Source of the DNA: Pyrinomonadaceae bacterium
GTDB lineage: Bacteria > Acidobacteriota > Blastocatellia > Pyrinomonadales > Pyrinomonadaceae
Assembly (NCBI GenBank): GCA_037969295.1
Contig: JBBKXD010000087.1
Coordinates: forward strand, 918 to 64,917
Length of the DNA stretch: 64,000 nucleotides
Direction: 5' to 3'
Both the position numbers and the translations under genes were made by a program. How positions within the stretch are numbered: position 1 is the stretch's first letter; every line of letters starts with the position of its first letter. Below are positions 4,175-54,557 of this stretch, piece after piece. The notes under the pieces are model-generated. The model was not told the DNA's origin. It worked only from the letters and a program-made list of their open reading frames with translations, and ran no database searches.

Positions 4175-4217
4175 GTGCTCCCGGCGTGATTCGAACACGC
4201 GACCTTCCACTTAGGAG
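4175..4217 (-). repeat. 43-nt direct repeat, a displaced 3' half of tRNA-Arg(CCT) (att-like island boundary)
   Basis: gtgctcccggcgtgattcgaacacgcgaccttccacttaggag is identical to 54483-54525. There is no 5' half and no encoded CCA here. Confidence 0.9.
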
Positions 4218-4563
4218 TCGGTTGCCTGTAGTATTATACGATATAATAGACTTTCAAATAGCCAAAATTATCTCTCATAACCCCTTTATTTGTAAAGTTT
4301 TGTCCCTCATCATTCCCAGATCTGGGTGTCGCCCCCGTTGAACGATATTCGCTCCCAGATCAACTGTGACACCGTGATGGGCGCTCCTACGGCGGTGAAT
4401 CTGAGATTAAGAAGAACACTGTTACCGTCAATCGGCATCGGGCCCTACATTAGCACTCCCAGAAGTCCCGGTTCATTGGAATTGGCAACAGCAGTAAAGC
4501 CAGCGGTTGACGGTTAGTGCGCGCGTTGCGAGTTCGTTGTATTTCCGGGATGTAAAACAAATT

Positions 4564-7500
4564 TTAGACCTTCTTAATTTCACCCAGTACAATGATCACT
4601 TGGTGCGTTTGTTCATCATCGATCAGAGGAATTTCTTTTGTTGATGATATTTTGCCGTCAAGCGAGACCTCCACAACTCCGCGACAAACACCTGACGGGT
4701 TTTCGACGCTTATCTGATACAACGTCTTTCCATAGCGGTAATAAATCTGAAACTCTTGCCAACTACGCGGGATACAAGGCTCGATTTTTAGAGTATCTCC
4801 TTGCAGATGAAAACCAAGCATCGATTCAAGAACGGCTCGATACATCCAACTTGCCGAACCCGTGTACCATGTCCAACCGCCGCGTCCGATGTGTTGGGGA
4901 TGTGAATATATGTCGGCGGCAACGACATACGGCTCGGTCCTATAGCGGTTGATTGCTTCGCCAGTGAGCGTGTGATTTATCGGATTCATCATTGAAAAAA
5001 GTTCGTATGCCTTTTCACCTTCACCCAGAAGAGCGTATGCGATGATCATCCAACACGCCGCGTGCGTGTATTGCCCGCCGTTTTCACGAATTCCAGGTGG
5101 ATAGCCTTTGATATAACCCGGTTCAAGCTCGCCTGCTTCAAATGGCGGAGTGAGCAAAAGCGCAAGGTTTTCATCCTTTTTTATCAGATGTTCTTCCGCC
5201 GATTCGACTGCTTGTTTTTGGCGTTTCGGATCTCCTAAACCGGCAATCAAGCTCCAACTTTGAGCGATTGAATCGATCTTGCATTCGTCATTCTTATGTG
5301 ACCCAAGCGGCGTTCCGTCATCAAAAAAAGCTCGCAAATACCAGCTGCCATCCCAGGCATTGGCTTCGAGATTCTTCGTCAGAAGTTTGGCGTGAGCGCG
5401 GTATTTTCTCGCTTTTTGACGTTCGCCTCGCCGTTCGCACACGGGTGCAAAATCATTCAAAATTTTAGCCAGAAACCATCCCATCCAAACGCTTTCACCT
5501 TTGCCTTTAGTTCCGACGCGGTTGAGACCGTCGCTCCAATCGCCCGCCCCGATCAGCGGCAAACCATGGTTTCCGGTAGTTAGGCTCCTTTCAACGGCTC
5601 GTATGCAGTGTTCAAACAAGCTGGCCGTTTCATCGGAAACGACCGGGCGCATATAAACTTCCATTTCTCCTTCCGTTAAGACCGGCGCATCCAGAAACGG
5701 AATGTTTTCATCGAGGACACCGGCGTCGCCCGTTTTGTCGACATAAAAATTGGTAACCAAAACGAGCCATAAAAGATTGTCGGAAATCCTTGTTCGGGTT
5801 CCGGCACCAGAAGGCTCGTGCCACCAATGTTGAACGTCACCTTCCTTAAATTGGCGCGAGGCGGCACGGATAAGGTGACGTCGTGCCAAATCCGGTCTTG
5901 AGTAAACCAGGGTCATCGCGTCCTGCAATTGATCGCGAAAACCGTAGGCTCCGCTTGACTGATAGACGGATGTTCGCGCCCAAAAACGGCATGATAGGGT
6001 CTGATAAACAAGCCAGTGGTTGATCAGTAGGTCGAGCTTCTTATCGGGGGTTTTAACGTTGACGACATCCAGAGTGTTGTTCCAGTTTTCAACGAGCTTC
6101 CCGTATTCCGTCGCAACCGATGAATGTTGACGAAAATGCAGAATACTTTCACGCGCCGCTGCTTTCTTGTCCTCTTCGCCCAAAAGAAAAATTATTTCGC
6201 GCGTTTCGTTTGGCTCTAATTCAAACTTGGATTGGACCGCGGCACAGGGATTAAGCCCGGCGCCGCTTGAACCGGAAAGATTTTCGCGGAACATCGCGGC
6301 GGGACGAGCCAGATTGCCGTTACGTCCTAAAAATTCGCGCCGATCGCACGTCCATGTCCGACTCAACGAATCGGTGGCGATGAATGCGACTCGGTCTGAA
6401 AACTCCGTATTGTTCGGGTTTCGGGCAAAAATCGCGCCCGTTACCGAATCTATTTCCGTGATTATGAATGGTGCCGATTTTGCTCGTTCGACGCCGAGAA
6501 CCAAATCGCAGTAAAACGTAGCGGATAGTTCACGGTGCCTATTCGTGAGGTTTTGCACTCGTAGACGCGAGATCTTTATGCTCGAATCTACAGCCGCAAA
6601 TACCAGCAGTTCCTGCTTGATACCATGGCTACTGTTTTCGTAAATTGTGTAACCGCGGCCGTGCCGGATCTTATATTCCGAATTTTCACGTACAGGCAGG
6701 GCCGTGGGCGTCCAGAAGCTTCCCGTCGCCTCGTCGCGCAAATAGACGCACTCGGAAGGCTGATTAACCACGGCATCGTTTGTCCAGGGAGTCAGCCGAT
6801 TTTCGTGGCTGTTGTTTGACCATACTATTCCAATTCCCGATTCGGCAGCGATAAATCCGAAACCATTTTCATTGGCGACAACATTCGTCCAAGGAGCGGG
6901 GGTGTTGGGGTTTTTGTCGTTCAGGCAGATCGCGTACTCTCTGCCGTCTTCGGAAAATCCACCGAAATCATTGGGAAATGTGAGCTCAGGCCCGTGCTGG
7001 GGCAGCCTTTCATAAGAACGCGACGCCTCACGCGGAATCAAATTAGGTGGAAGCTCGGTTTGTTCCACGCGTCGCCCCAGCTGTTCTTCGAGCGATCCGC
7101 GCTCGACGACAAAACAGATTTGAGCGGCCGCATGAAGTGTAATTCGATCTTCTTCCGGCATCTCCTCCGAACGCCGTATGAAGACCCCGCCCCGCGCGTC
7201 AATCAGCGAATGCGCCGCACTCCGGCGTATTAGATTCAATAGATCTTCCTTGATTCCCTGCGCGTAACTCGTCGGCTGATCGTTAAAGATCACCAAATCG
7301 AATATCATTCCCTTGCTACGCAAGTACTCGTGGGCGCGTAAGATCTGGCTAACACTGTTCTCCCAACCATTGCATAAATTGACTCGTACAATCATGATCG
7401 GCAAGTCGCCGCTGATACCATATTTCCATAGGGTTTGCGGTGTCCCGCGATTGAGTCGCAAGACACTTTCGAGCGGACGCATGAGCGGATTCGTATAAAT

Positions 7501-10500
7501 TAAGTGTCCCGCAAGACGCTGAAAAAGGTTTGCTTCATTTCTTGAAATCCCAAGATGCCGCAATTCGACCTGAGAACGCGTCCAGGCAAGTTTTTCTGCA
7601 CGTTCAAAGCATTCCAGATGACAGTATTTATCAACACTGGCCACTACTTGCTCACGCGAATCAGCGGCACTAGTCGAAAAAATCAAACTAACCGACCTAT
7701 TCGGCGAAATGGAAACGTGGGCACGCAAAGCGAAGATCGGATCGAGCGTGGCCCCGACCACTCCTGAAAGATTCTCTTGGGAATTAGTAGCGATAGGATC
7801 ATTTGTCGTTCTTCCGCGGCCTATAAAGCGCAAGCGGTCAGTTTCAAAACTGACCCCGCCGGCTATCTCGCCCTCGACGGCGACGGTATGAGCTAACCAG
7901 AATGCTTTATCTTCAGTAGAACGTGGGCGACGACGGGCGAATATTGTTCGTCGTTCAGCATCGTATTCGGTCTCGACAAAGAGATTAGTGAATGCTGGGT
8001 GAGCCTCGTCGGCAGCTTGTTCGTTTAAAACGATTTCACCGTAACTAGTCACTTCGATATGGCGGATTCTAGTTGATTCATTGGTAAGCGTAATGCGACG
8101 AAGTTCAGCATCATCTTCGGTCGCTACGATAATTTCTATGTGAGTTAGGATACCAGCATCGCGTCGCCGAAATTCAGCCTTACTTTCGGTAAAAACAGCT
8201 TCATATTCATGCGGTTGGCGCAAAACTGGTTGAAAGCCGCCGGACCAAACGGCACCGCTCCGCAGATCTCGCAGATAAAAAAATTGCCCCCAATCGTCAC
8301 GTATCGTATCTTCACGCCAACGAGTTACGGAACGGGTTCCGACCCTTGAATAACCGCTTCCGGCTGTTGTGAGCATTGCCGTGTAGTTACCGTTCGAGAG
8401 CAGGCAAACCGGCGGCGCAAATTGTTCGGCTGATGTATAGCGCCGCGGCGCTGGAGCAACGGATGCAGGTGAGCGACGACCGGAAGAAACGGCCGCAGCT
8501 CGTGGTTTTTTGGCTTCTGCCTGAAGACGAGGAATGCGTTCTTGAAGTAGAAGTTCCGCGGATTCAACCACTGGCGCGTGATGAAAGCGATTGACCATTA
8601 CCTCATTATTCAAAAGGTTATCAAGTGCGACCAAGGTCATTCCCTGATGATGTGCCATATACGATTCGATCAGAGCATATTTTTGATTTGGAGGCAGACG
8701 TTCCTTTGTGTAGTCAACAGCTTCATAAAATCCAAACGGACCGAGCATTCCTTCGTTTTGGAGGCGGCGTAGATTTGTTGCAGCCGCCGATGGTACAAGC
8801 GTTAATGCAAGAGCAGTCGCATAGGGCGAAATTACAAGATCTTCGGCCAAACCGCGCTTGAGACCCAAACCGGGCACTCCGAATGGACCATATTGATAAT
8901 TGAGCTGCAGATCTCGAACATTGTAAGCTGATTCCGACACACCCCACGGGAGTTTATTTTCTTCGCCATATTGAATCTGCCGCGCCACAATAGTCCGATA
9001 AGTTTCGGACAAAAGTGTGTTCTTATAATCGCGCATCAAAAGTAACGGCATCAGATATTCGAACATTGTTCCCGACCATGAAACGAGAGCCCGGCTCCCG
9101 TTTGTCCTTACTAAGCCGCGACCAAGTCGAAACCAATGTTCCCGCTCTACGTCGCCCGAAGCAATCGCAATAAAACTCGCCAACCGAGCTTCCGAAGCCA
9201 GAAGGTCATAAAAGGAATTGTCGCGGACGCCTTCGTCAGGGCGATATCCGATCGTTAATACTTTTCGTTCCTCATCATAGAGAAATCCAAATTCCGTTTC
9301 ATTAGCCAAACCTCGGCAAAGGCCTGCTATGCTTTCGATTCGCACCCGGAAATTTCTCTGTATTTCTTTTGTTTGAGCGATCGTTTCGGGACCATAATCC
9401 ACCGGCATCAGCATATCTAAGTCCCGGCTGTAATTGCTCGTAAGACGAAGAAAAGACGTTGTCCAAAATTCTAACTCCGATAGCTGTTCTTCGCCGTTTG
9501 CTGATTGCTCGATGATCTTGCGGATACTTTTTCCACTATTCTCCAAAGCGTTAAACAAGGATTTCCATGCCCTAGCCGTTTTTGGTTCGGCATTTCTCAA
9601 AACCCTTTCGGCAGTTTCGATCTCTTTGACCAATTGCAGAAAGAGCGGAAATATTCCCGTCAAGGATTCACCTTCTGTTTTCAAAAATGCAAGCGTGTCC
9701 TGAAGTCCATTCCGGGTCCGTTGGTCAAACAGAGGAAAATTGGCAAATTCTTGACAGCCCTCAGCAACCGCAATCAGGCTTCCCACCAGATTGCCACTGT
9801 CAACGGTTGAAATATATCCCGGCTTTAGCGGTTCGAGTGTCTGGGTGTCATACCAGTTATAGAAATGACCGCGAAAGCGAGGCAATCGCTCCAGCGTAGT
9901 ACAGGTCAATTCAATACGTTCGATGGTTTCTAGCGTTCCCAAAAAGCCGAAGTCCCTCGCGGCAAGCGTCGAAAGAAGGAGAAGGCCAATATTCGTAGGC
10001 GACGTGCGGTGTGCCGTTATGGGAGTCGGTTCTTGTTGAAAATTGTCAGGTGGCAGCCAGTGATCGCTTTCACCGACGAAGGTTTCAAAGAACCTCCATG
10101 TTCGCCGCGCGATAAGCCGAAGCCATTCGACATCCTTTTGGTCAAGTTCGCTTGCAGCTTGCCTTTCGACGGCCATCCGGCTTAACCAAAATGCGACGAG
10201 CGGCGAGAAGAACCATAGAATCAAAAATGGCGCGGCATAAACCAAGTGATGAGGATAGAGATAAGTTACCACGCCGAAAATAAAGGCCGCCGAGACGGGC
10301 GCGAAAAGCATAAAGCGATAATAGCCGTACAAATCCTTTCGATCTGCTTCGTCACTTTGGGCTGCCGTTACCCATTCGAGGAGATTCTTTCCCGAAATGA
10401 ATTTTCGGTAAAAAACACGCACGATCGCATCTGTCATCGTATAGGCTTCATGGGCAAGAAAGGTAACCCGAAGCAAAAGCTGAATCGCACTCAATTTAAT

Positions 10501-13203
10501 GTCATTTAAGAGATTAATGAATTGCAGCTTTATACTCTGCCGTATGCCGACTGTCGTTTCTACTACAGGCGCGGAGGCAATCTGCAAGTAAAGCGGGGCG
10601 GTCAATACAATAAAAGCAAAAAGCGTTGAAATCAAAGGAGAAAGCGGCAGAATGGTCCACGCAAAAACGAGCCATAACAGGATCGAAACGGCAACCAGGC
10701 TTCGGCGCAGATTTTCCCGAATTTTCCAACGGGCCAACATTGGAAGACGGTTTCTCACGGTTCGGCCTTCGGCGTCCTGAACAAAAGGGAAAAGCCAACG
10801 CATTATCTGCCAATCGCCACGAGTCCAGCGGTGCCGTCTTTGCGAAAAAGAATAATATCCTGACGGATAATCGTCATAAAAGACAATGTCGGAAACGAGT
10901 GCGACACGGGCGCATAGTCCTTCAAAAAGGTCATGGCTTAAGAGTTTGTTTTCGGGAATCCGATGGTCCAGGGCGGCTTCGAAAGCGTCAACATCGTACA
11001 GACCTTTGCCGACGTAGTTGCCTTCACCGAACAGATCCTGATAAACGTCTGAAACGGCGGTTGTATAAGGATCGAAACCTTTTCCGGCGGAGAATATCCG
11101 GGCAAACGGCGAACAAGCCGCACTCGTCAAACTGATTTCTATGCGCGGCTGCAAAATTCCATAGCCTGCTATTAGGCAACCTGCTTTTTCATCGAAAATG
11201 GGCCGGTTCAAAGGATGCTCGATCGTCCCGATGAGTTTATGTGCCGCATCTCGTGGTAATTGCGTATCGGCATCGAGCGTTATTACATAGCGGATCGTTT
11301 TCAAGAATTCAAAGTCGGGGCTATCGGTCAAATCGAAGCTCGTTTCGGTCGCACCGCGGAGAAGTTGATTAAATTCGTGCAAATTACCACGCTTGCGTTC
11401 GCGGCAGATCCAGGCATTTTCGCCATCATTCCATTGACGATGGCGTGAGAAAAACAAAAATCGCCCTTTTTCTATCGAATCATATTTCTTATTCAATTCC
11501 GCACAAATTTCCGTAGCTGCCTGTCGCAGTATTTTATCTTCAGGGGTTATCTCGCTTTTTGCATCAGTCAGATCGCCTAGCATCGCAAAATAGACCTGTC
11601 CGTCTCGGTTAGCGAGATGATAGATTTCGAGACGTTCAAAAAGCTCCTCTATAGTTGCCTTATTGGTCAGTAAAGTAGGAATGACGACGATCGTTCGCGC
11701 CTTTTCAGGTATTCCCTTTCTGAAATCCATTTTAGGAAGCAGACGCGGCTTGAGTAGAACCGTTATGGTCCAGTTGACGATCGTTATGGCCAGTTCGCCT
11801 GCGGGTGTAATCGAAAGCAGCAAGACCAGTATGAAAACTAATATGGAATAGCTGGCTGAGTTAACGGCGGCATAGGTGATGCCTACGGCGAACAAACCGG
11901 TTAGCACTCCAATTGCCGCTAAATAAACAGGCGTTGGATACAAACGAACGAACCTTCCGGAATATTCGCTGAAACTCAACCAATACGAGAAAGATTTTTC
12001 CAGTTCTGACAATCCTTCATCCGTATGCAGAAAGTACCCGACGTGCCTATGCCGGAAGTTTTCAATTTCGGTTTTCCCATTGTCGGTCATCGTTTGTCCG
12101 GCAATTTCGACAGCGCGGCGCGCAATGTCAATCTCTCCGGCGCGAGTTTTCTTTGCAATTCGCTCTATCTGATGGCGATATTGATCGCGCGTTGCAAAAT
12201 CCATTAGCGCATAATCGCCAGCCGGGTCATTTTGCAGAATACGGTCAACGAGACTGGTCTTCTCGAAAAACTCCTGCCAATCGAGCGTCGACAGAAGACG
12301 CATACTCGTGATTATGTTGGCGACAGAAATCTGTGCAGTGGCTTGTCGGTTATGTTCAAGATGGGCGAGATGCTCAATCGTCTCCCCCCTGCGGCGCAAG
12401 ACAGTTTCAATTTTGTCCAGAGCAAAAGTCATCAGACGATTGCCTTCGCGGAGACGGGCGGTGAGCTGTGCAATAAATGTTGCCGACGCTTCCTGTTCAA
12501 AATTTCGATTATCAAAAGTAGTTGAGATCAACTGTAGGGACTCTACCGAAAGATCTTCGGATGTGTCTTCCGCCAGGCGGTCGGCAAATTTATCCGCTGT
12601 TGCGCGGTCGGAGCGGGCCTTCACGATCTTGTCGGCATAGCGGCGCAGATTTTCAATCAGACCGAGCCGTAAGGTAATCGGGAAGGCCCACAATTCACCC
12701 ATATTCAATGGCGAAATGCGTTGATAGGACTCAATGAAGGCGTGAAGGCTTCGAGACTCAAAATTATTGTCAGTGTGGGCGATTATCTCGATCGCCAGTT
12801 GAAAAATACGTGGGTAATTCTTAAATTCGCCGGTTTCGAGTTTTGGGAGTTCACGGTAAAAGCTGCCAGGTAAATCCTGACGCACCTCGCGAAGTTGTTC
12901 TTCAACAATGTGAAAATTATCGACGAACCACTCGGCGGCCGGTGTAACCGAGTCGCCTTTTTCCGCTGCTTCGGTCAGAACTTTGTAGTCCGCGACGAGC
13001 TGCGTGTGATTTTCGCCGAGCCGGGCGAGCATATTTCGCCCTGGCCGGATCGTTTTCGAAACTTCGTGTGATACAGCAATTTCCTCAGCCCGTTTTTCGA
13101 GCTGTTCGATACTTAATAATTCCCCGCGAATCGGCAGTTCATCGTCAAACTTCGGAATTTGCCGCGCACGACCGTTTGTTTTTGATCTCCGAGAATCAAG
13201 CAT
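4564..13203 (-). CDS. cgs: cyclic beta-1,2-glucan synthase (Cgs/ChvB/NdvB type: membrane glycosyltransferase plus C-terminal GH94 phosphorylase-like domain)
   Basis: A single 2879-aa ORF. It has N-terminal TM segments, a GT domain (LDADTQLPRD, QRRHRWTRGDWQ) and a long C-terminal GH94-like region (WYTGSASWMY, GGQYTHAA). Size and architecture are diagnostic. Confidence 0.88.
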   Translation of the reverse strand: MLDSRRSKTNGRARQIPKFDDELPIRGELLSIEQLEKRAEEIAVSHEVSKTIRPGRNMLARLGENHTQLVADYKVLTEAAEKGDSVTPAAEWFVDNFHIVEEQLREVRQDLPGSFYRELPKLETGEFKNYPRIFQLAIEIIAHTDNNFESRSLHAFIESYQRISPLNMGELWAFPITLRLGLIENLRRYADKIVKARSDRATADKFADRLAEDTSEDLSVESLQLISTTFDNRNFEQEASATFIAQLTARLREGNRLMTFALDKIETVLRRRGETIEHLAHLEHNRQATAQISVANIITSMRLLSTLDWQEFFEKTSLVDRILQNDPAGDYALMDFATRDQYRHQIERIAKKTRAGEIDIARRAVEIAGQTMTDNGKTEIENFRHRHVGYFLHTDEGLSELEKSFSYWLSFSEYSGRFVRLYPTPVYLAAIGVLTGLFAVGITYAAVNSASYSILVFILVLLLSITPAGELAITIVNWTITVLLKPRLLPKMDFRKGIPEKARTIVVIPTLLTNKATIEELFERLEIYHLANRDGQVYFAMLGDLTDAKSEITPEDKILRQAATEICAELNKKYDSIEKGRFLFFSRHRQWNDGENAWICRERKRGNLHEFNQLLRGATETSFDLTDSPDFEFLKTIRYVITLDADTQLPRDAAHKLIGTIEHPLNRPIFDEKAGCLIAGYGILQPRIEISLTSAACSPFARIFSAGKGFDPYTTAVSDVYQDLFGEGNYVGKGLYDVDAFEAALDHRIPENKLLSHDLFEGLCARVALVSDIVFYDDYPSGYYSFSQRRHRWTRGDWQIMRWLFPFVQDAEGRTVRNRLPMLARWKIRENLRRSLVAVSILLWLVFAWTILPLSPLISTLFAFIVLTAPLYLQIASAPVVETTVGIRQSIKLQFINLLNDIKLSAIQLLLRVTFLAHEAYTMTDAIVRVFYRKFISGKNLLEWVTAAQSDEADRKDLYGYYRFMLFAPVSAAFIFGVVTYLYPHHLVYAAPFLILWFFSPLVAFWLSRMAVERQAASELDQKDVEWLRLIARRTWRFFETFVGESDHWLPPDNFQQEPTPITAHRTSPTNIGLLLLSTLAARDFGFLGTLETIERIELTCTTLERLPRFRGHFYNWYDTQTLEPLKPGYISTVDSGNLVGSLIAVAEGCQEFANFPLFDQRTRNGLQDTLAFLKTEGESLTGIFPLFLQLVKEIETAERVLRNAEPKTARAWKSLFNALENSGKSIRKIIEQSANGEEQLSELEFWTTSFLRLTSNYSRDLDMLMPVDYGPETIAQTKEIQRNFRVRIESIAGLCRGLANETEFGFLYDEERKVLTIGYRPDEGVRDNSFYDLLASEARLASFIAIASGDVEREHWFRLGRGLVRTNGSRALVSWSGTMFEYLMPLLLMRDYKNTLLSETYRTIVARQIQYGEENKLPWGVSESAYNVRDLQLNYQYGPFGVPGLGLKRGLAEDLVISPYATALALTLVPSAAATNLRRLQNEGMLGPFGFYEAVDYTKERLPPNQKYALIESYMAHHQGMTLVALDNLLNNEVMVNRFHHAPVVESAELLLQERIPRLQAEAKKPRAAAVSSGRRSPASVAPAPRRYTSAEQFAPPVCLLSNGNYTAMLTTAGSGYSRVGTRSVTRWREDTIRDDWGQFFYLRDLRSGAVWSGGFQPVLRQPHEYEAVFTESKAEFRRRDAGILTHIEIIVATEDDAELRRITLTNESTRIRHIEVTSYGEIVLNEQAADEAHPAFTNLFVETEYDAERRTIFARRRPRSTEDKAFWLAHTVAVEGEIAGGVSFETDRLRFIGRGRTTNDPIATNSQENLSGVVGATLDPIFALRAHVSISPNRSVSLIFSTSAADSREQVVASVDKYCHLECFERAEKLAWTRSQVELRHLGISRNEANLFQRLAGHLIYTNPLMRPLESVLRLNRGTPQTLWKYGISGDLPIMIVRVNLCNGWENSVSQILRAHEYLRSKGMIFDLVIFNDQPTSYAQGIKEDLLNLIRRSAAHSLIDARGGVFIRRSEEMPEEDRITLHAAAQICFVVERGSLEEQLGRRVEQTELPPNLIPREASRSYERLPQHGPELTFPNDFGGFSEDGREYAICLNDKNPNTPAPWTNVVANENGFGFIAAESGIGIVWSNNSHENRLTPWTNDAVVNQPSECVYLRDEATGSFWTPTALPVRENSEYKIRHGRGYTIYENSSHGIKQELLVFAAVDSSIKISRLRVQNLTNRHRELSATFYCDLVLGVERAKSAPFIITEIDSVTGAIFARNPNNTEFSDRVAFIATDSLSRTWTCDRREFLGRNGNLARPAAMFRENLSGSSGAGLNPCAAVQSKFELEPNETREIIFLLGEEDKKAAARESILHFRQHSSVATEYGKLVENWNNTLDVVNVKTPDKKLDLLINHWLVYQTLSCRFWARTSVYQSSGAYGFRDQLQDAMTLVYSRPDLARRHLIRAASRQFKEGDVQHWWHEPSGAGTRTRISDNLLWLVLVTNFYVDKTGDAGVLDENIPFLDAPVLTEGEMEVYMRPVVSDETASLFEHCIRAVERSLTTGNHGLPLIGAGDWSDGLNRVGTKGKGESVWMGWFLAKILNDFAPVCERRGERQKARKYRAHAKLLTKNLEANAWDGSWYLRAFFDDGTPLGSHKNDECKIDSIAQSWSLIAGLGDPKRQKQAVESAEEHLIKKDENLALLLTPPFEAGELEPGYIKGYPPGIRENGGQYTHAACWMIIAYALLGEGEKAYELFSMMNPINHTLTGEAINRYRTEPYVVAADIYSHPQHIGRGGWTWYTGSASWMYRAVLESMLGFHLQGDTLKIEPCIPRSWQEFQIYYRYGKTLYQISVENPSGVCRGVVEVSLDGKISSTKEIPLIDDEQTHQVIIVLGEIKKV

Positions 13204-32642: not shown

Positions 32643-32655
32643 AGAGGAGATGACA

Positions 32656-34010: not shown

Positions 34011-34026
34011 GTTGTTTCACGAGAAA

Positions 34027-44257: not shown

Positions 44258-44303
44258 ACCGATGAATCTTCTGATAATGCAATGATTCGGGTGAGGTAAA
44301 AGA

Positions 44304-44720: not shown

Positions 44721-44759
44721 ATTAAAGTTTAGTTGTTCGAATAAAATTAAGAGGTAATT

Positions 44760-45305: not shown

Positions 45306-45354
45306 CATGGAAACATCCCCTCCGTCGTTACGCGTCCACAAACTTTGACGTGCT

Positions 45355-46455: not shown

Positions 46456-46535
46456 TCGAAGTTAACGCAAACAGTTAGTTTCAGAAGGTGTTGAAATTAA
46501 TTTATGAGCCGTGTTTCGTCGGCTGAAAAGGAGGA

Positions 46536-46787
46536 ATGATCATGATAGAGCATGGATGGCTTGGCGGCATGCATATGTTTTGGTGGATATTTTGGGTGGT
46601 GGCCATAATTTTGTTTTTCGTGTTTATGGAGGCCGAACCTAAACATAAAGCTCGGAAAAGACGTGAAGCGCCTTTAGATATATTAAAACGACGGTATGCC
46701 GCGGGCGAGTTGACCACGGAAGAGTTTAAGGAACGAAAAGCACATTTGGATGAAGACGGGCTAGACCAAAAATCGGGTCAAATGTGA
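46536..46787 (+). CDS. SHOCT-domain small membrane protein
   Basis: One TM helix followed by DILKRRYAAGELTTEEFKERKAHL. The ATG at 46542 is an equally good start. Confidence 0.7.
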   Translation: MIMIEHGWLGGMHMFWWIFWVVAIILFFVFMEAEPKHKARKRREAPLDILKRRYAAGELTTEEFKERKAHLDEDGLDQKSGQM

Positions 46788-46954
46788 TTCGGAGAAGGTT
46801 CGCCGACCGTGATGAATGCCCTTTCTCATCGGTGCAGGATCTGCTTGTGCCTCTCTACCGAGTTCTGTGAAAACTGAGGCATAGAGTTTTCTATCGGGTA
46901 TCGCTGTGGAAAACAGGGCGAAGCCCCTAGGAATCTCTAAAAGGAGCAAGAACA

Positions 46955-47227
46955 ATGTTGAATATGAAAATCGTGAGTTGGTCTCTCGGCATTTTTACTG
47001 CCATAAGTTTCGTGCTTTGCGTCATATACGGCTTAATTGTGCCGAAGGGTTTGCATATGCACGAATTTCTCGAAATGGTATTACCGGCGTTTGAGTGGCT
47101 AACCGTCTGGGGGTTTGTTCTCGGTCTCATCGAAAGTTTCCTCTACGGCGCGTATACAGGAATCGTATTTGTACCGATTTACAATTTACTTTTTTACCGG
47201 TGGGGTGGAAGGCGCAGGCGTGTATGA
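46955..47227 (+). CDS. small 2-TM membrane protein, paralogue 4 of 4 (DUF5676-like)
   Basis: MLNMKIVSWSLGIFTAISFVLCVIYGLIVPKGLHMHEFLEMVLPAFEWLTVWGFVLGLIESFLYG... Confidence 0.6.
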   Translation: MLNMKIVSWSLGIFTAISFVLCVIYGLIVPKGLHMHEFLEMVLPAFEWLTVWGFVLGLIESFLYGAYTGIVFVPIYNLLFYRWGGRRRRV

Positions 47228-47291
47228 GTTTTTTCACGCGGGTGGACTGGGATAGTGCCAGGAAATCGTTTGCCAAGAAAAATTTGGAAAT

Positions 47292-48011
47292 ATGCAATAC
47301 GTTTGGCTGACATGGTCCTTTCTGATTCTCGGTCTTTGGTCGGTAATCTATGTTGTAAAAAAAGATTATCGAAAAGTCATGCTGCCCGTCAGCCTTGGGA
47401 CAATGTTGTTTGGATTCACAGAGCCGTTGTTTGTCCCGGAGTACTGGTCGCCGCCTTCATTATTTGGTTTGGCCGAAAAAACCGGATTCGATATTGAAAG
47501 TTTCATATTTTCTTTTTCGATCGGCGGGATCGCATCGGTGCTTTATTCGTTCGTATTTTTCGCGGGCCCTGTTAGGTTGGATCAAACGGAAAAAACGGAT
47601 AAGCGTCACCGGCTTCATCTATATATTTTGTTTCTGCCTTTTTTAGTGTTTCCTTTTTTGGCGGTCGCCACAAATCTGAATCACATTTATTGCGGGATCA
47701 TTGCTCTTTTAGTCGGGGCAGTGGCGACTCTGTATTGTCGACCGGACCTAAAGGGGAAAATATTGATCGGTGGGCTGCTTTTTGCAATCCTGTATTTTTT
47801 CTACTTTGGCAGTATCTTGGTGTTTTTCCCGGACTATATAAGGACCTATTGGAACTTGAACGCACTCTCTAACTTTTTTATTTTGGGCATCCCGATAGAA
47901 GAAGTACTTTTTGCTTTCACTTTCGGCATGTATTGGTCAGGGATATTCGAGCATTCGGCATGGTATACCGTTCGTTCAAAGAAAACGATCTTTAATTCGT
48001 CGAATGGATAA
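47292..48011 (+). CDS. polytopic membrane protein, possibly lycopene-cyclase-domain family
   Basis: About 7 TM helices, with FTEPLF and GIPIEEVLFAF (PxEE-type) motifs reminiscent of CrtYc/Yd-like domains. This is a weak call. Confidence 0.35.
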   Translation: MQYVWLTWSFLILGLWSVIYVVKKDYRKVMLPVSLGTMLFGFTEPLFVPEYWSPPSLFGLAEKTGFDIESFIFSFSIGGIASVLYSFVFFAGPVRLDQTEKTDKRHRLHLYILFLPFLVFPFLAVATNLNHIYCGIIALLVGAVATLYCRPDLKGKILIGGLLFAILYFFYFGSILVFFPDYIRTYWNLNALSNFFILGIPIEEVLFAFTFGMYWSGIFEHSAWYTVRSKKTIFNSSNG

Positions 48012-48045
48012 ACATAATTTCTATTGAAATAGTTCGGGAAATATT

Positions 48046-50421
48046 ATGAGAAGAGAAATAACGAAAGGAACTTTGACACCGGCTGAGATCGAAAGAATCA
48101 ATGCTTACTGGAGGGCGGCGAATTATCTCTCCGTCGGGCAGATCTATCTGTTAGATAATCCGCTGTTGCGCGAACCGCTTAAAATCGAACATATCAAGCC
48201 GCGTTTGCTTGGTCATTGGGGAACAACGCCCGGACTAAACTTTATTTACGCGCATTTGAATCGCTTGATAAAACAGCACGATTTGAATGTGATTTACGTC
48301 TGCGGCCCCGGACACGGCGGACCGGGAATTGTCGCCAATGTTTATCTGGAAGGCACTTACAGCGAAGTTTATCCGAATATCTCGCGGGATACTGAAGGAA
48401 TGCAGAAATTGTTCAAACAGTTTTCCTTTCCCGGCGGCATTCCGAGCCACGTCGCACCGGAAACGCCCGGCTCGATCAACGAAGGCGGCGAACTCGGTTA
48501 CTCGCTCGTTCACGCTTACGGCGCGGTTTTCGATAATCCCGATTTGATCGCGGCGTGCGTCATCGGCGATGGCGAAGCCGAAACCGGAGCTTTGGCGGCA
48601 ACCTGGCATTCAAACAAATTTATCAATCCGGCACGGGACGGGATTGTTCTTCCGATCCTGCATTTGAATGGTTATAAGATCGCCAATCCAACTGTGTTGG
48701 CACGTTTGAGTCACGAAGAATTGGAAGATTTGATGATCGGTTACGGGCATAAACCATATTTCGTCGAAGAAGAAGACCCTGAAAAGATGCACGAAGAGAT
48801 GGCGAAAACACTCGACGCGGTTTATTCGGAAATTTTGGAAATTAAAGGACGGGCGCGGGAAAACGATTCGTTTGAACGCCCGATTTATCCGATGATCGTT
48901 CTCAGAAGTCCAAAAGGCTGGACGGGTCCGAAAATGGTTGACGGTTTGAAGATCGAAGGCACTTTCCGCGCTCATCAAGTTCCACTCGCCGCGCTTGCGG
49001 AAAAGCCGGAACATTTGAAGATGCTCGAAGAATGGATGCACTCGTATAAACCCGAAGACCTGTTTGACGAAAACGGAACTCTGATTCCCGAATTGCAGGA
49101 ACTCGCGCCAGAAGGCACTCGTCGAATGGGAATGAATCCGCACGCTAACGGCGGAAAACTGCTCAAGGATCTGAAGATGCCGGATTTCCATGATTATGCT
49201 ATTGAATTTTCCGAACCAGGCTCGGCGAAGGCGGAAGCAACAAGAGTTCTTGGCGAATTCTTGCGCGATATTTTCCGGATGAATTCTGATAATAAAAACT
49301 TTCGCGTATTTGGACCTGACGAAACTGCTTCAAATCGACTGAGCGCCGTTTTTGAGCAAACAAACCGCGTTTGGACCGAAGGCATTTTACCAACTGATGA
49401 TTTCCTCGCACCGGACGGCCGCGTCATGGAAGTTTTAAGCGAACACCTTTGCCAAGGCTGGCTCGAAGGCTATCTTTTGACCGGACGGCACGGTTTGTTT
49501 TCGTGTTACGAGGCGTTCATCCACATCATCGATTCGATGTTTAACCAACACGCGAAATGGCTCAAAGTAACCCGCGAAATTCCGTGGCGACGACCGATTG
49601 CGTCCTTGAATTATCTTCTGTCGTCGCACGTCTGGCGGCAGGATCACAACGGTTTTTCGCATCAAGACCCGGGTTTTCTCGACCACGTTATTAACAAGAA
49701 AGCCGAAGTCGTGCGCGTCTATCTGCCGCCTGATGCCAATACGCTGTTGTCGGTCGCCGACCATTGCTTGAGAAGTAAAAACTATGTCAATGTGATCGTC
49801 GCCGGAAAACAACCGGCCTTGCAATTTCTCGATATGGACGCGGCGGTCAAACACTGTACCGCCGGTGCCGGCATCTGGGAATGGGCGAGTAATGATGAAG
49901 ATGGAGAGCCGGATGTCGTAATGGCTTGCTGCGGCGACGTGCCGACGCTTGAAACATTGGCGGCGGTTGATATTCTGCGAAAAAACTTCCCTGATTTAAA
50001 AATCCGAGTGGTCAATGTTGTTAATTTGATGAAACTCCAGCCCGTCAAAGAACATCCGCACGGACTTTCCGACGCAGATTTTGATTCGATATTTACCACC
50101 AACAAACCGCTTATCTTTGCCTTTCACGGCTATCCGTGGCTGATTCACCGTTTAACTTATCGGCGGACAAATCACAAAAATCTGCACGTTCGAGGTTATA
50201 AGGAAGAAGGCACGACGACGACGCCGTTCGATATGGTCGTCTTAAACGACCTTGACCGTTTTCATCTGGTGATGGATGTTATTGAACGTCTTCCTCAGCT
50301 TGTAAAAACCGGAGCTCACGTCAAGCAAAAAATGCGCGACAAACTCATCGAACACAAAGAATATATCTATGCTCATGGCGACGATATGCCGGAAATTAAA
50401 GATTGGAAATGGACATATTAA
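48046..50421 (+). CDS. xfp: xylulose-5-phosphate/fructose-6-phosphate phosphoketolase
   Basis: 791 aa. [20 protein letters not shown] and [11 protein letters not shown] motifs. Full-length XFP architecture. Confidence 0.92.
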
Positions 50422-50445
50422 GGCGAATCAAACAGATTGATATTT

Positions 50446-51675
50446 ATGAATGTTCTAGTCTTAAATTGCGGCAGCTCGTCGCTTAAGTTCCAACTGATCG
50501 CCACCGATTTGGAGCTAATTGAGCGAGATGGTGACCGGCGTCTCGCGCACGGCGAAATTGAGCGAATCGGTGGAGCGGCGATCATCACTTTTACGGCTGA
50601 AGGAAAAACCGCTTATCGTTCCGCCGAACCGATTAAAGATATGCGCTCGGCGGTTGAAACCGTTTTAAGATGGATTGCATCGGATGCGTCGGAAATTGAT
50701 GAAATAAGTGCCCTTGCCGATATTCAGGCCGTCGGTAATCGTGTAGTTCACGGCGGCGAAAAGTTTACCGAATCGGCAATAATTACGGACGAAGTTCTGC
50801 GCGGCATCGAAGATTTTATCGAACTTGCGCCGCTGCATAACCCCGCCAACATCAAGGGGATTTTAGCCGCCCGCGACGTTCTCGGCAAAGGAATTCCGCA
50901 GGCGGCGGTTTTCGACACCGCGTTTCACCAAACTCTGCCCGAACACGCTTTTCTATACGCACTTCCCTATCAATTTTACCGGCGCCACAAGATCCGCCGC
51001 TACGGTTTTCACGGCACATCTCACCGCTACGTCGCTTATCGCTACCGCAAAATCAAAAATATCGAGCGCGAAAACGTCAACATCATCACGCTGCATCTCG
51101 GCAACGGCTGTTCGATCGCGGCAATCAAAGGCGGTAATTCGATTGATACTTCGATGGGTTTGACACCGCTCGAAGGCTTAGTGATGGGAACTCGCTCGGG
51201 TGATATTGATCCGGCAATCGTCGAATTTATCTGCTCGAAAGAAGGTTTGACGGTGCAGGAAACTGAAATGCTTCTCAATACACAATCAGGATTGCTCGGC
51301 GTTTCTGGTCTGACCAACGATATGCGCGAGCTTGTTGCCGAGGCAACCGAGAACAAAGACCGCCGTTCGCTGCTTGCCATCGAGATCTTCTGTTATCGGG
51401 CCACTAAATATATCGGTGCCTATTTAGCCGCAATGAATGGTACTGACGCAATCATTTTTGCGGGCGGCATTGGTGAAAACTCAGCTTACGTTCGTCGCGT
51501 TATTTGTGAAAAGTTAAAGTGGATCGGAATCGAACTAAACGCAGAGAGTAATCAGGAAACGGTAAACGGAAAAGAAGGCATCATCAGCCTCGACAACTCG
51601 CGGCCCGATGTCTACGTGATTCCGACCAATGAAGAACTACTCATTGCCCGCGATACCGTTCGGCTTATTTCTTGA
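50446..51675 (+). CDS. ackA: acetate kinase
   Basis: MNVLVLNCGSSSLKFQ, VGNRVVHGG, GFHGTSH and IFAGGIGENS. Confidence 0.92.
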   Translation: MNVLVLNCGSSSLKFQLIATDLELIERDGDRRLAHGEIERIGGAAIITFTAEGKTAYRSAEPIKDMRSAVETVLRWIASDASEIDEISALADIQAVGNRVVHGGEKFTESAIITDEVLRGIEDFIELAPLHNPANIKGILAARDVLGKGIPQAAVFDTAFHQTLPEHAFLYALPYQFYRRHKIRRYGFHGTSHRYVAYRYRKIKNIERENVNIITLHLGNGCSIAAIKGGNSIDTSMGLTPLEGLVMGTRSGDIDPAIVEFICSKEGLTVQETEMLLNTQSGLLGVSGLTNDMRELVAEATENKDRRSLLAIEIFCYRATKYIGAYLAAMNGTDAIIFAGGIGENSAYVRRVICEKLKWIGIELNAESNQETVNGKEGIISLDNSRPDVYVIPTNEELLIARDTVRLIS

Positions 51676-51726
51676 ACGGACAACGGTTCTAGTGATGTCG
51701 ATTGGACACAAGGGCCGGAGAATATT

Positions 51727-52131
51727 ATGACGGAACACTCGTATTCGATTGCCGGTGCAGGGCCGGCGGGCTTGGCTGCCGCAATTACATTGGCGAACGC
51801 CGGGCGAAATGTCATCGTGCACGAAGCAAATCCGAAAGTTGGAGTTCGTTTTCAGCGAGACCTTCAAGGTTTGGAGAAGTGGTCCAGTAATGTTGATATT
51901 CTGGACGAATTTTCTGCCTTTGGTTTGTCATTGGCCTTTAAGCGTCATCCGGCGGTGTCAGGAACAGCCTTCGATGCGTGGGGAAAAAGCCACCCAACCT
52001 CCTGTTGCCTATTGCCAGAAGACGGTTTCGAAGTCAGCGAGACGATGTTAGCTGCAGCCATGCGAATTGTGATTGCGTCTGGTGCCATAGTTGCGCGGCA
52101 GACGACGGAATCCAAGAATGACGGTCACTAA
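51727..52131 (+). pseudogene. N-terminal fragment of an FAD-dependent oxidoreductase (geranylgeranyl-reductase-like)
   Basis: YSIAGAGPAGLAAAITLANAGRNVIVHE dinucleotide-binding motif. Only ~95 aa are plausible, followed by non-coding debris up to 52370. Confidence 0.5.
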
Positions 52132-52370
52132 ATGTAAACCTTCGAACGCTTTATCGCGATGGCAAGCACAGGACGGATTGACTTCATCTGCGTCCAAATT
52201 TTGCACACGGTTCATGCTGCTTTTGCCTCAAAATCGCTCTGATTCATTATTACTACTATCGCTCCGGTTCAAATGCCGTTAATGACGCCAAAACGAACTA
52301 ATCCGACAAATCCGACGAAAATTACCCCGATCACTCCAATTTAGAAAGGCTCTAAGGTTACGGTTATTTA

Positions 52371-53300
52371 TCAGCTTTTTGTTATTACTTCGACAGTGCA
52401 GGACGCGCTGCTCGCAACGGCCGACGCGACGCAGCCTAAAGAATGGGATTGTCCAGAGTTTGCTCCGATGAAAATTGTGTCGGCGTTCCATGCTTTCGTC
52501 TCCTTGGTCAACATTATCCGCGGGTTGCCGCCACAATGATTGACTGAAGTTGTTAGGCCTGCGTTTCTAAGCAGAACGAGGGCTTTGCTAGTTAAGGATT
52601 CAACCCATTTCTCTTCGCCTTTCATCCCGCCTTCCGGAATTCCTGGAATTAGCTGAAACACCCTTCCTGGAATTAATGCAATAAGTGGATCCGTAACAAC
52701 AAAAAGCCCAACTTCCGGCTTTCCTTTCCACTGCCGCAACGAAACCGTTCTGACTGCTTCCAAAGAGCACGGGGAGTTATCAAAGCATATAGCGATTTTG
52801 AGCCGGTCGGTTTCGTTCTCTAGTCCTACGCGGACAATTCGCACCGGAACGTTTGAATAAGAAAGGATCTTTTGGGAAAGGCTACCTAACCCTGTCCTAT
52901 TGTCTGATGAAAGTCCCAGAGGACCGACAACGATCAGATTCGGTGCGAATTCAGCGGCTACTTGCAGGATCACTTGGGCGGGTGAGCCTACAAAGGCTAG
53001 TGTTTCTATGGACCATTTCGGAAAGAGTTTTTGTAGGTTTTCTTTGGCTTCGACAAGGATCCCCCTTGTTACCTCTAGGTTTCTATCCATCTGTTCAGAG
53101 TGTTTGTGAAAATATTCAAAAATGTCGTCGCCAAGATGTGTTTCATGCTTGCTACCGTCTATTTCTGGTGATAGCGAAACCTCGGAGACTGAAATGATCC
53201 GGACGTGCGCCTGGTTTGGGAAGCCAGCGCACTGTAAGTCGTAAATAGCATTGCGTGAATATCCCGATCCATCGTATGCGATTAAGATTTTCATAACCAA
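52371..53300 (-). CDS. universal stress protein, tandem UspA domains
   Basis: KILIAYDGS...LIVVGPLG...VRIVR and KIAICFDNS...IFIGANSG...VASAVASSASCTVEVI. Same 309-aa size and architecture as 13215-14144. Confidence 0.85.
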   Translation of the reverse strand: MVMKILIAYDGSGYSRNAIYDLQCAGFPNQAHVRIISVSEVSLSPEIDGSKHETHLGDDIFEYFHKHSEQMDRNLEVTRGILVEAKENLQKLFPKWSIETLAFVGSPAQVILQVAAEFAPNLIVVGPLGLSSDNRTGLGSLSQKILSYSNVPVRIVRVGLENETDRLKIAICFDNSPCSLEAVRTVSLRQWKGKPEVGLFVVTDPLIALIPGRVFQLIPGIPEGGMKGEEKWVESLTSKALVLLRNAGLTTSVNHCGGNPRIMLTKETKAWNADTIFIGANSGQSHSLGCVASAVASSASCTVEVITKS

Positions 53301-53403
53301 ATAGATTTATTGCTCGATGGGTTACCTTCCCGGCTTCCCCAATCTATATTTTTTTTATAAAGTTTTGGAGTAATCGTTATGTTCCAACTTCTCATACTCC
53401 ATT

Positions 53404-53978
53404 TTAGTCATGTGTCGGGTTTTGCTCCAATAATTCCGCACGGAGCAGAAAGCTGCCCTCAGTTACGATTCGGTCTCCAACATTCAGGCCTTCCAATACC
53501 GTAAAGCGGCCATTGTTTTCCGCCCCGAGCCGCACCTGCCGTATACCAAAGACATTTGGCTTGTCTGTTGAAACAAAGACTACCGTTCGTTCATGTTCTG
53601 AGCCGCCGAAGCCGGGATCACAGGCATAGTCCGTTCGGCCGTTCCAGTTGAGCCGAAAGCAGCATTGACATACATTCCGATCTTAAGCACTTGGCGGGGA
53701 TTTTCAACTTCGACGCGAACCTGTGGCGAGCGAGTAGCTTGATCTATATTAGGATGAATATACGTGACGTGGCCGCGAAACAGGCGCCCCGGATAATCAT
53801 CGGTAGTCACGCTCGCGCCGCTTCCGGTTCGAAGCAAATGTATGTCCTTTTCATAAACCTGGGCAATCACCCACACCGTTCCAAGGTCGGTTACACGCAT
53901 CAATTCCTTGTTTACCTCTATCACCTCGCCGGGATTCGCATCACGCTTTGTGATCGTTCCGGAAACAGGTGCGGTCAA
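53404..53978 (-). pseudogene. 5'-truncated and frameshifted RND/heavy-metal efflux periplasmic adaptor (MFP) gene
   Basis: APVSGTITKRDANPGEVI...VWVIAQVYEKDI...GHVTYIHPNIDQATR (barrel domain). The C-terminus VVFVSTDKPNVFGIRQVRLGAENNGRFTVLEGLNVGDRIVTEGSFLL is in another frame, and no N-terminal half is present. Confidence 0.65.
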
Positions 53979-54001
53979 GCTAATTTCGGCGCTAATCTGC
54001 G

Positions 54002-54349
54002 ATGGCGAACGGAGGGAGTTTACGCGCGGCGCTGGGAGGCCGCGAATCGATAGCTATACGATTCGCATGCGACCCAAATTCCTTTAAAACAGTGACCCAT
54101 GAGCAACAACTGGAAGGCGTCAACAAAGCTTCAGAGAGAGTTCCTGGCCAACCAAAAGATATTGCCTCCGTTCGCGACCCGCTATTGAGCGAAGCTGAAG
54201 CCGCAAAATTCCTGGGAATTTCAAAAATGACATTGCTCCGCAAACGAAACGCAGGAAACATCGGCTTTTTTAGGCTAGGGTTCCGCGTTCTTTATTCCAA
54301 AGAAAAGCATCTCCTTCCTTTTTTGGAGCAATGCGAGCGAGGAAAATAA
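54002..54349 (+). CDS. excisionase/AlpA-like helix-turn-helix DNA-binding protein
   Basis: LLSEAEAAKFLGISKMTLLRKRNAGNIGFFRLGFRVLYSKEKHLLPFLE matches the excisionase-type HTH pattern. The true start is uncertain. It lies ~130 nt from the tRNA. Confidence 0.55.
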   Translation: MANGGSLRAALGGRESIAIRFACDPNSFKTVTHEQQLEGVNKASERVPGQPKDIASVRDPLLSEAEAAKFLGISKMTLLRKRNAGNIGFFRLGFRVLYSKEKHLLPFLEQCERGK

Positions 54350-54480
54350 ATCCAATATTTTCTCCACCAACGAAAAAAATGACTATTAAGGAAAATAAAA
54401 GGTCTGCCTACTAATAGGAAACTTTCTAGGAAATACACATAAGTCTGTCAGTTGTTGACAGGCTAAGTTTTTGATTTCAA

Positions 54481-54557
54481 TGGTGCTCCCGGCGTGATTC
54501 GAACACGCGACCTTCCACTTAGGAGGCGGACGCTCTATCCAACTGAGCTACGGGAGC
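54481..54557 (-). tRNA. tRNA-Arg (anticodon CCT), CCA encoded
   Basis: The reverse complement folds as GCTCCCG-TA-GCTC-AGTTGGATA-GAGC-G-TCCGC-CTCCTAA-GTGGA-AGGTC-GCGTG-TTCGAAT-CACGC-CGGGAGC-ACCA. Confidence 0.92.

Follow-up and report, generated by a model that had tools for sequence, protein, structure and literature searches.

The window analyzed here, a stretch of 64,000 nucleotides of contig JBBKXD010000087.1 from a Pyrinomonadaceae bacterium (a soil member of the Acidobacteriota), was found to carry a genuine but immobilized island of about 50 kb (4218 to 54482), ordinary as a kind, inserted at the gene for tRNA-Arg(CCT). At one end the island adjoins the working tRNA gene and at the other a displaced copy of the 3′ part of that gene; next to the tRNA it preserves the remnant of a recombinase-like gene that is found at the ends of a family of Acidobacteriota elements. 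Taken as a whole, the account that this block is a decayed member of that family, that its integration at tRNA-Arg(CCT) produced a hybrid tRNA gene and that its mobility genes were lost by deletion is given a probability of roughly 85%. The first-pass annotation, made from the letters alone, had likewise proposed a site-specifically integrated island at this tRNA, a proposal that is supported by the direct repeat and by the empty sites in relatives described below.

Insertion of the island at the tRNA-Arg(CCT) gene

tRNA-Arg(CCT) was the single tRNA detected in the window (54481 to 54557, minus strand) by ARAGORN, with Rfam in agreement. A 43-mer within this gene was found in exactly two copies in the window, 4175 to 4217 and 54483 to 54525, which are identical and in the same orientation, as had been noticed on the first reading of the sequence; their starts are separated by 50,308 bp. 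In a chance control, none of 100 shuffles contained a match even when three mismatches were permitted, and no third or partial copy was found inside the block when the 22-nt core of the 43-mer was used as the query. In the tRNA orientation, the repeat starts with the first base of the anticodon loop and ends with the discriminator base and the first C of CCA, and its extension by three matching bases on the 5′ side gives 47 of 48 identical positions. Beyond the repeat, the copy at 54483 to 54525 continues with CA, completing an encoded CCA, and the copy at 4175 to 4217 continues with GTTTTT. The earlier description of the former as part of a full tRNA with CCA and of the latter as lacking CCA was confirmed by ARAGORN, Rfam and sequence comparison.

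The genes that flank the island are of the housekeeping type, including those for YkuD, an M54 peptidase, TsaE and Nnr on the left and adenine phosphoribosyltransferase, acylphosphatase, a chlorite-dismutase-like protein and others on the right. A scan of reference genomes with Nnr recovered 16 loci, 15 of them from Pyrinomonadaceae, Blastocatellia, Chloracidobacterium or unclassified Acidobacteriota metagenome-assembled genomes and one (L016) labeled Bacillota. The island was found to be missing from the same site in the three closest relatives (L012, L015, and L001; all Pyrinomonadaceae), in which Nnr is 92-95% and the flanking DNA 86-92% identical: the counterparts of window positions 64000 to 54483 are joined directly to those of 4221 to 1, with the alignments overlapping on the repeat. 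The tRNA-Arg gene of these empty sites ends 286 nt before the nnr start codon, and the same 286-nt spacing separates the remnant in the window (4175) from the nnr start (3889). The search for an empty site that the first-pass annotation had suggested was, thus, positive in three independent relatives, with the flanks contiguous across an intact tRNA-Arg. A comparison of composition, also suggested at that stage, set the island apart from its flanks, with a GC content of 0.501 versus 0.533 and a GC content at third codon positions (GC3) of 0.55 versus 0.61.

The working tRNA gene is a hybrid

The sequence at 4175 to 4217 (minus strand) is the displaced original 3′ part of tRNA-Arg(CCT); it starts at the anticodon loop, stops one C after the discriminator, has no CCA and forms the distal attachment (att) junction of the island. 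The GTTTTT trailer that follows it is the trailer of the uninterrupted tRNA in the three relatives with an empty site. In those relatives, tRNA-Arg has no encoded CCA and reads GGGAGCA followed by C, G, or A and then GTTTT; on the island side of the window tRNA, the 3′ end reads GGGAGCACCATTG and is followed by a hairpin. Because the island-side copy supplies the CCA and the terminator, unlike the CCA-less tRNAs of the empty sites, the functional tRNA-Arg(CCT) gene of the window (54481 to 54557) is a hybrid, in which the 5′ part is chromosomal and the part 3′ of the crossover, together with the encoded CCA and the terminator, is from the island. The crossover is located somewhere within 54483 to 54525. 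In the mechanism that we propose, the element would have entered the Pyrinomonadaceae chromosome by site-specific recombination inside tRNA-Arg(CCT), with the crossover falling within the 43-bp identity; it would have carried its own 3′ part of the tRNA, with CCA and a hairpin terminator, to complete a working tRNA, and the original 3′ part would have been pushed 50.3 kb away, beside the native trailer, a conserved non-coding element and nnr.

The island-borne hairpin (54442 to 54464) gave terminator-like matches on both strands, and its computed folds indicate that it could be a two-way terminator, ending transcripts of the remnant gene on one strand (plus) and those of the rebuilt tRNA on the other (minus). 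A promoter-like sequence for the tRNA (TTGACA-17-CACAAT) was detected at 54599 to 54571, within the spacer between the tRNA and the adenine phosphoribosyltransferase gene. Three tandem arrays of 7-nt repeats at 54563 to 54723 (GATTTTG × 4.6, GGATCTG × 3.3, and CCAAATC × 8) fill the spacer between the tRNA-Arg promoter region and that gene. As a separate observation on the encoded CCA, which is absent from the native tRNA-Arg(CCT) (window 54481 to 54483 compared with L012 at 9715, L015 at 9714, and L001 at 1398), the tRNAs adjoining other elements of the family (Lys in L019, Asn in L020) also end with an encoded CCA.

The tRNA-proximal end is the remnant of a recombinase-like gene

Just inside the tRNA end of the island lies an open reading frame (ORF) at 54002 to 54349, which the first-pass annotation had called an excisionase-type helix-turn-helix (HTH) ORF. 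Matches to the HTH_17 and 'excise' (TIGR01764) models were indeed found, in the surviving C-terminal residues (about 50); the idea of a stand-alone Xis was not upheld, as the ORF proved to be the 3′ fragment of a gene encoding about 305 amino acids (aa). The closest homologues cover the N-terminal part of the ORF as well and adjoin tRNA genes. In L019 and L020, the homologous frame extends upstream into an ORF with a PF07508 'Recombinase' domain, and other homologues are one continuous protein that starts with the recombinase domain, passes through a CxC...CxxC zinc ribbon and a short helical stretch to the motif 'ARESISIRFACDP', and ends in a linker followed by HTH_17. Based on tblastn and the family alignment, the window retains the last ~100 of ~305 codons (54041 to 54349, plus strand): only the last ~100 alignment columns are matched, starting from 'RESIAIRFACDP' (nucleotide 54041), and the first 13 codons of the ORF are unrelated to the family and read in from a deletion junction. 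The window copy keeps the region after the zinc ribbon only, with the recombinase domain and the zinc ribbon itself deleted. An intact AlpA/Xis gene was ruled out for this ORF, since the full-length alignment shows the truncation of a 305-aa protein.

At least 205 homologues of the ~305-aa protein were recovered in a search with its N-terminal part. Nearly all are 295-320 aa in length, are annotated with PF07508 with or without PF12728, and begin, without exception, at the 'APFGYRW' start of the recombinase domain; a Resolvase catalytic domain (PF00239) was found in none of these homologues. An alignment with an E-value of 7e-6 links the recombinase domain to the part of the A118 serine integrase that binds DNA, at its C terminus, and an AlphaFold model of the ~305-aa protein (mean predicted local distance difference test [pLDDT] score of 76) matches complexes of large serine recombinases (LSRs) with DNA (4kis, E-value 2e-11; Bxb1; and PhiC31). 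By alignment and model, this protein, here termed RD-ZnF-HTH17, resembles the DNA-binding half of a large serine recombinase that is devoid of the catalytic domain.

A family of tRNA-inserting elements in Acidobacteriota

The family was defined here as Acidobacteriota elements with an ATPase plus RD-ZnF-HTH17 end cassette. The cassette has the order: p166-like protein (~166-230 aa), ATPase (~1000 aa), ~305-aa protein, TAGGAAA repeats, hairpin and tRNA 3′ end. In loci drawn from genome, metagenome and assembly collections, the ATPase gene was found directly upstream of the full-length ~305-aa gene in all 17 cases with enough upstream DNA, the stop codon of one often overlapping the start codon of the other; nine loci have a p166-like ORF before the ATPase; and a tRNA gene lies on the opposite strand, 100-150 nt downstream of the ~305-aa gene, in 23 loci. 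The tRNAs targeted are Asn-GTT, Lys-TTT, Lys-CTT, Arg-ACG, Arg-TCG, Ala-GGC and Thr-CGT, which together with the Arg-CCT of the window make eight. The window fits this layout, with the stop codon of the remnant ending at 54349 and the tRNA 3′ end at 54481. Among the intact relatives, a Chloracidobacterium contig of 1.05 Mb has two copies.

The non-coding end of the island was also found to be shared. A conserved cis element at 54415 to 54443 (plus strand), TAGGAAACTTTCTAGGAAATACACATAAG, contains a direct TAGGAAA repeat and is a candidate protein-binding site; it differs at two positions from the corresponding end of L066 (ERZ26165376 ctg355685), TAGGAAACTTTCTAGGAAACACACAAAAG, which lies at a tRNA-Lys. 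At other tRNAs, L018, L019, and L020 have TAGGAAA-type sequences plus a hairpin in the corresponding place, the hairpin being shared by L066 as well, and blastn similarity from the island end to L039, L040, L054, L055, and L064 reaches the tRNA boundary. When the island was compared by blastn with all fetched loci, similarity to other elements was confined to 54041 to 54480. C-terminal-only remnants that lie beside tRNAs without an ATPase were found in six other loci (L018, L024, L034, L053, L058, and L060); therefore, decay to such a state seems common. Short AlpA-like relatives were also seen, upstream of primases in other elements.

At least 982 relatives of the ATPase were found. The protein gave weak matches to TrwB, TraG and DUF87 models, and a fold search with its AlphaFold model (pLDDT 74) revealed a resemblance to VirB4/TrwK, TrwB and HerA. 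In the model, an extra C-terminal domain of the order alpha-beta-beta-beta-alpha-beta is confidently predicted and carries invariant acidic and lysine residues; based on this order of secondary structure and on the conserved D/E/K residues (among them D884, E897, and K913), we hypothesize that the domain may be nuclease-like. A hidden catalytic domain was not detected in the ATPase, with no Resolvase match by Pfam and only P-loop matches in sequence and profile searches of the Protein Data Bank (PDB). A subgroup of the ATPases (P0179, P0230, P0259-P0267, and others) has an HTH_17 domain fused at the N terminus, a fusion that suggests a functional link between the ATPase and this type of DNA-binding domain. 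With regard to type IV secretion, the relatives were found to encode a lone VirB4/TrwB-like ATPase only. In some members, a ThiF (E1-like) gene and small ORFs lie just upstream of the ATPase (L019 2146 to 5628, L020 2916 to 5666, and L049/L067 6152 to 9987), in L020 with a Prok-JAB gene beside the ThiF gene; this layout resembles ubiquitin-like conjugation defense systems, and PADLOC did not recognize the two small ORFs that were submitted to it.

Neither the ATPase nor the recombinase-like protein nor p166 was assigned to a curated family at cut-off in searches of NCBIfam and PADLOC. Plasmid, phage and IMG/VR collections yielded no full-length family member, with only distant ordinary serine integrases recovered, and nothing relevant was found in the literature on Acidobacteria serine-recombinase tRNA elements and DUF8128. 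The family of tRNA-inserting elements is, apparently, undescribed so far in Acidobacteriota.

Loss of the mobility genes by deletion

Searches of the window by tblastn with the backbone of L019/L020 and the genes of L066 revealed the HTH remnant only; a full-length ~305-aa gene, the ATPase and p166 were not found. The position of the loss was provided by a related cargo block. Six cargo proteins of the island (the glucan synthase, the sigma54 regulator, the kinase, Lgt, the thymidine-phosphorylase-family protein and phosphoketolase) were found by cluster look-ups to have copies of at least 90% identity on other contigs, and on one of these, JBATLV010000053.1 (L069; assembly GCA_049289555.1), the genes have the same order with consecutive accessions (MFZ1700902..949). 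From the glucan synthase to the phosphoketolase, the order of ~47 genes is kept in this other genome at a protein identity of at least 90%. Most proteins of the flanks have no copies of at least 90% identity in other assemblies, a contrast that supports a probable horizontal spread of the cargo. At the DNA level, L069 and L070 are ~90% identical to window positions 41896 to 54042, with two indels of 3.5-3.9 kb in L069; one corresponds to a scar at 51674 to 52370, where blastn revealed ~0.7 kb in place of a 3.5-kb segment of L069. Within the scar, an N-terminal stub of an FAD-oxidoreductase (51727 to 52131) is matched by Pfam over residues 8-42 (~40 residues).

At the tRNA-proximal limit of this homology lies a pseudogene of a czcB/cusB-type membrane-fusion protein (53404 to 54042, minus strand), which is 5′-truncated and, as seen in the translation, frameshifted; it matches positions 86-214 only of the HlyD_D23 profile, with the first ~85 absent. 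Position 54042 is the last with homology to L069, and 54041 is the first with homology to the element family. L069 and L070 run on past the counterpart of 54042 through an intact czcB (515 aa in L069), followed by czcC and czcA; the end of the deletion is therefore placed at 54041/54042, where the alignments show a deletion junction that fused the middle of czcB to the last ~100 codons of the recombinase-like gene. By this comparison, the deletion took the ATPase, p166, most of the recombinase-like gene and all that lay between these and czcB. In our model, the island would have arrived as a member of the Acidobacteriota family with its fixed tRNA-proximal cassette, a later deletion at this junction would have removed the ATPase, most of the recombinase-like gene and the intervening DNA, a segment that presumably included the catalytic recombinase, and the island would have persisted as an accessory block for stress, osmotic, carbon-overflow and metal handling. 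With these genes removed, the island is unable to move by itself.

No tyrosine or serine recombinase (PF00589, PF00239) or transposase was matched by Pfam among the 41 ORFs scanned between 4564 and 54349. Six-frame Pfam scans likewise detected no recombinase in 51676 to 54480 and 4218 to 4563 (E ≤ 1) or in five interior gaps (E ≤ 0.1); these scans covered nearly all interior non-coding DNA, leaving out 26524 to 27421, 35639 to 35995, and the minus-strand frames of 43277 to 44303. Type IV secretion genes and a relaxase were also missing from the Pfam matches in the window. The first-pass conclusions that the block holds no integrase or fragment of one, and that the element is probably fixed, were borne out by these scans and by the deletion of the mobility genes.

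Cargo genes and non-coding features

The distal gene of the island (4564 to 13203, minus strand) encodes a 2879-aa protein with GH94 supersandwich, GH94 catalytic and Glycoamylase domains by Pfam, which is like a cyclic beta-1,2-glucan synthase in size and predicted domains and has copies of at least 90% identity in four other assemblies. The main cargo (13215 to 51675), identified by Pfam scans and by the accession numbers of the collinear contig, includes: (i) several universal stress (Usp) proteins, together with regulators (two of the MerR type and a sigma54 response regulator accompanied by a PAS hybrid kinase); (ii) sugar-phosphate enzymes (6PGDH-like, RpiB, a DeoC-type aldolase, phosphoglucomutase [PGM] and a HAD hydrolase); (iii) a copper P-type ATPase, along with YHS, DUF5676 and DUF302 proteins; and (iv) Lgt, cyclopropane fatty acid (CFA) synthase, an MFS transporter, VKOR, an M50-CBS protease, phosphoketolase and acetate kinase. 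A tandem-Usp protein (52371 to 53300, minus strand; Pfam Usp) is collinear with L069. Judged by domain names, the cargo may be a stress, osmotic, carbon-overflow and metal-handling package, by which the host would gain a coherent gene set for stress, osmotic, phosphoketolase/acetate and metal-handling functions.

Two further features of the cargo were observed. The thymidine-phosphorylase-family gene (41406 to 43276, minus strand), whose product is 513 aa in other genomes, has in the window a body of 428 aa (41990 to 43276) and a PYNP_C tail (within 41406 to 41992) in different frames, which suggests that it is split by a frameshift or sequencing error. At least four paralogous small DUF5676 ORFs with two transmembrane segments, below the 100-aa ORF cut-off, were found in 32640 to 34381, 35639 to 35995, 43277 to 44303, and 46456 to 47291, most of them near YHS, SHOCT or metal-related genes.

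The distal end of the island (4218 to 4563) was found to be non-coding, with no ORF and no Pfam match in six frames, as described on first reading; the accompanying description as AT-rich was true only mildly (GC content of 0.468 versus 0.501 for the island). Two promoter-like sites on its minus strand (4296 to 4267 and 4257 to 4230) point outward to the tRNA remnant and nnr. On the chromosomal side, outside the island, a non-coding element of ~190 nt (3955 to 4150, minus strand) was identified by alignment and folding; across 11 Pyrinomonadaceae/Blastocatellia loci, it is better conserved than nnr, with invariant blocks such as TATTAAATGAACGGAA and CACAGTGGCAGACATT. The hairpin and U-run at 3961 to 3997 (minus strand) that the first-pass annotation had pointed out proved real and strong (−24.2 kcal/mol, z −3.8), with compensatory changes in the stem among the aligned loci. 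Its assignment as the displaced terminator of the tRNA held for the original chromosomal context; the hairpin ends the conserved ~190-nt element, however, and may be more than a tRNA terminator. No Rfam family was found for this element, which is a candidate small RNA or tRNA-linked transcript.

The integration enzyme and alternative explanations

Several points weigh against the account of a decayed and integrated family member: (i) the composition difference between island and flanks is modest; (ii) the empty sites could represent precise loss in the relatives rather than the pre-insertion state, which would leave the island verdict unaffected; (iii) the contig of the window is from a metagenome-assembled genome; (iv) the homologous block of L069, seen without either of its ends, is only a putative island there; and (v) seven related elements (L019, L020, L036, L042, L045, L049/L067, and L050) showed no serine or tyrosine recombinase in the 7-13 kb next to the tRNA. 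Because the catalytic recombinase of the family was not found near the tRNA in these seven, that the deletion removed the integrase is something we infer.

Only in L066 was a full 512-aa large serine recombinase encoded, 2.4 kb upstream of the ATPase and beside RuvC-like and HTH_3 genes; the same RuvC and HTH_3 pair is present in L020 at the edge of the fetched DNA. Therefore, a serine recombinase located deeper in the elements is a reasonable candidate. Tyrosine integrases classically leave a footprint of this type, an identity (here of 43 bp) with its start at the anticodon loop, and serine integrases normally share a core of only 2 bp with their targets and seldom use tRNAs. The first-pass annotation had read the repeat as a tyrosine-recombinase footprint; the repeat from the anticodon loop fits, and the attribution to the tyrosine class was not established, with the sole recombinase relic of the island belonging to the serine lineage and no tyrosine integrase beside the tRNA in the window or in the related elements seen. 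An identity of 43 bp would be left by any enzyme that cuts inside the tRNA gene if the element restores the tRNA. It is doubtful that the end cassette itself (the p166-like protein, the ATPase and the protein devoid of a catalytic domain) performs the integration without a canonical serine or tyrosine recombinase; in a weaker version, the ~305-aa protein may be a new kind of accessory protein or directionality factor that binds att sites and assists a recombinase whose gene lies at a distance within the element.

Islands at tRNA genes commonly lose their integrase. The island of the window might be excised and moved in trans, as a non-autonomous passenger, by an intact family member in the genome or community. 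The two repeats are identical at 43 of 43 positions, the end with the TAGGAAA repeat and hairpin is undamaged and differs little from that of intact elements, such intact relatives are frequent in the lineage, and C-terminal-only remnants recur beside tRNAs in the six other loci; however, recurrent remnants are equally compatible with simple decay, and no helper element is known for the source genome, which was seen as the window only. We consider mobilization of this kind unlikely and favor an island that is fixed.

Assembly of the block by successive insertions and rearrangements at a tRNA-Arg hotspot, instead of by one 50-kb integration, is consistent with a GC content that varies from 0.45 to 0.55 along the block and with the two 3.5-3.9 kb indels that distinguish the window from L069. 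In more distant relatives, the stretch between the tRNA and nnr holds inserts of 1.7-7.4 kb that are unrelated. In one of these relatives, L008, tRNA-Arg(CCT) has received a separate insert of 4.1 kb (2249 to 6420), which encodes rhodanese, MBL-rhodanese, TauE and ArsR proteins and terminates in a degenerate version of tRNA positions 26-73 (87.5% over 48 nt); therefore, the site is a recurrent integration hotspot. No integrase was found in the inserts of L008 and L014 between tRNA-Arg and nnr, which hold only sulfur-metabolism and other cargo. Against stepwise assembly, however, the block has no internal att-like copy, the hotspot inserts of other genomes are unrelated to it in sequence, and the order of ~47 cargo genes is kept elsewhere at a protein identity of at least 90%; for the most part, the block was therefore transferred or inherited in one piece. 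Stepwise assembly is, in our estimate, quite improbable. An assembly artefact, in which an empty tRNA-Arg site and a separate circular element with the 43-mer were threaded together, might be suspected for a metagenome-assembled genome and from an independent Logan contig (L017) that stops inside the 43-mer, as a repeat would cause, but is very hard to credit, as the k-mers of modern assemblers exceed 43 and a repeat of this length is spanned by reads, a stop inside the repeat is equally expected for the integrated state, and deleted mobility genes would be odd for an actively circular element.

Comparison with known systems

Little is known of the mobile elements of Acidobacteria, which are abundant in soil. 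The island of the window is a textbook case in itself, and the interest lies in the element family and its missing catalytic step: identification of the protein that cuts and joins DNA for this family would either extend serine-integrase biology by an accessory factor or uncover a new mechanism of integration. In a search for the far ends of related elements, no direct repeat or second fragment of the tRNA was found within 7-13 kb in 24 loci. The island is the only element here with both ends visible and therefore shows the attachment footprint of the family, which begins at the anticodon loop, runs through the 3′ end of the tRNA and includes a CCA contributed by the element, in a family that targets at least eight tRNA species.

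When compared with P4-like tyrosine-integrase islands, the island is alike in the repeat that runs from the anticodon loop to the 3′ end of the tRNA (a feature not exclusive to this class), in the replacement 3′ part that keeps the tRNA functional with the displaced part at the far end, and in its accessory cargo. An anticodon-loop class of tRNA integration sites was reportedly recognized by Williams in 2002. Unlike P4-like islands, the window has no Phage_integrase gene or fragment, and more than 20 related elements have beside the tRNA, in place of a tyrosine integrase, a gene akin to those of serine recombinases. With the large serine recombinases (A118/LI, Bxb1, PhiC31, SCCmec Ccr, and XisF), the family protein shares the recombinase domain and the zinc-ribbon fold that read att half-sites, but it has no N-terminal Resolvase domain and no long coiled-coil, and it has an added C-terminal HTH_17. 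The surviving ~50 C-terminal residues match HTH_17 and TIGR01764 as do excisionase/AlpA-type proteins; in the family, however, the HTH is the tail of a 305-aa protein, and the window ORF is a product of truncation. The pSAM2-type elements of actinomycetes encode a tyrosine Int, Xis and an FtsK-like TraB. The family is similar to these in its integration at the tRNA 3′ end and in a single translocase of the hexameric-ATPase type that replaces a full type IV secretion system, but its ATPase, absent from the window, is VirB4/TrwB/HerA-like, has an extra C-terminal domain and is only putatively assigned a role in transfer.

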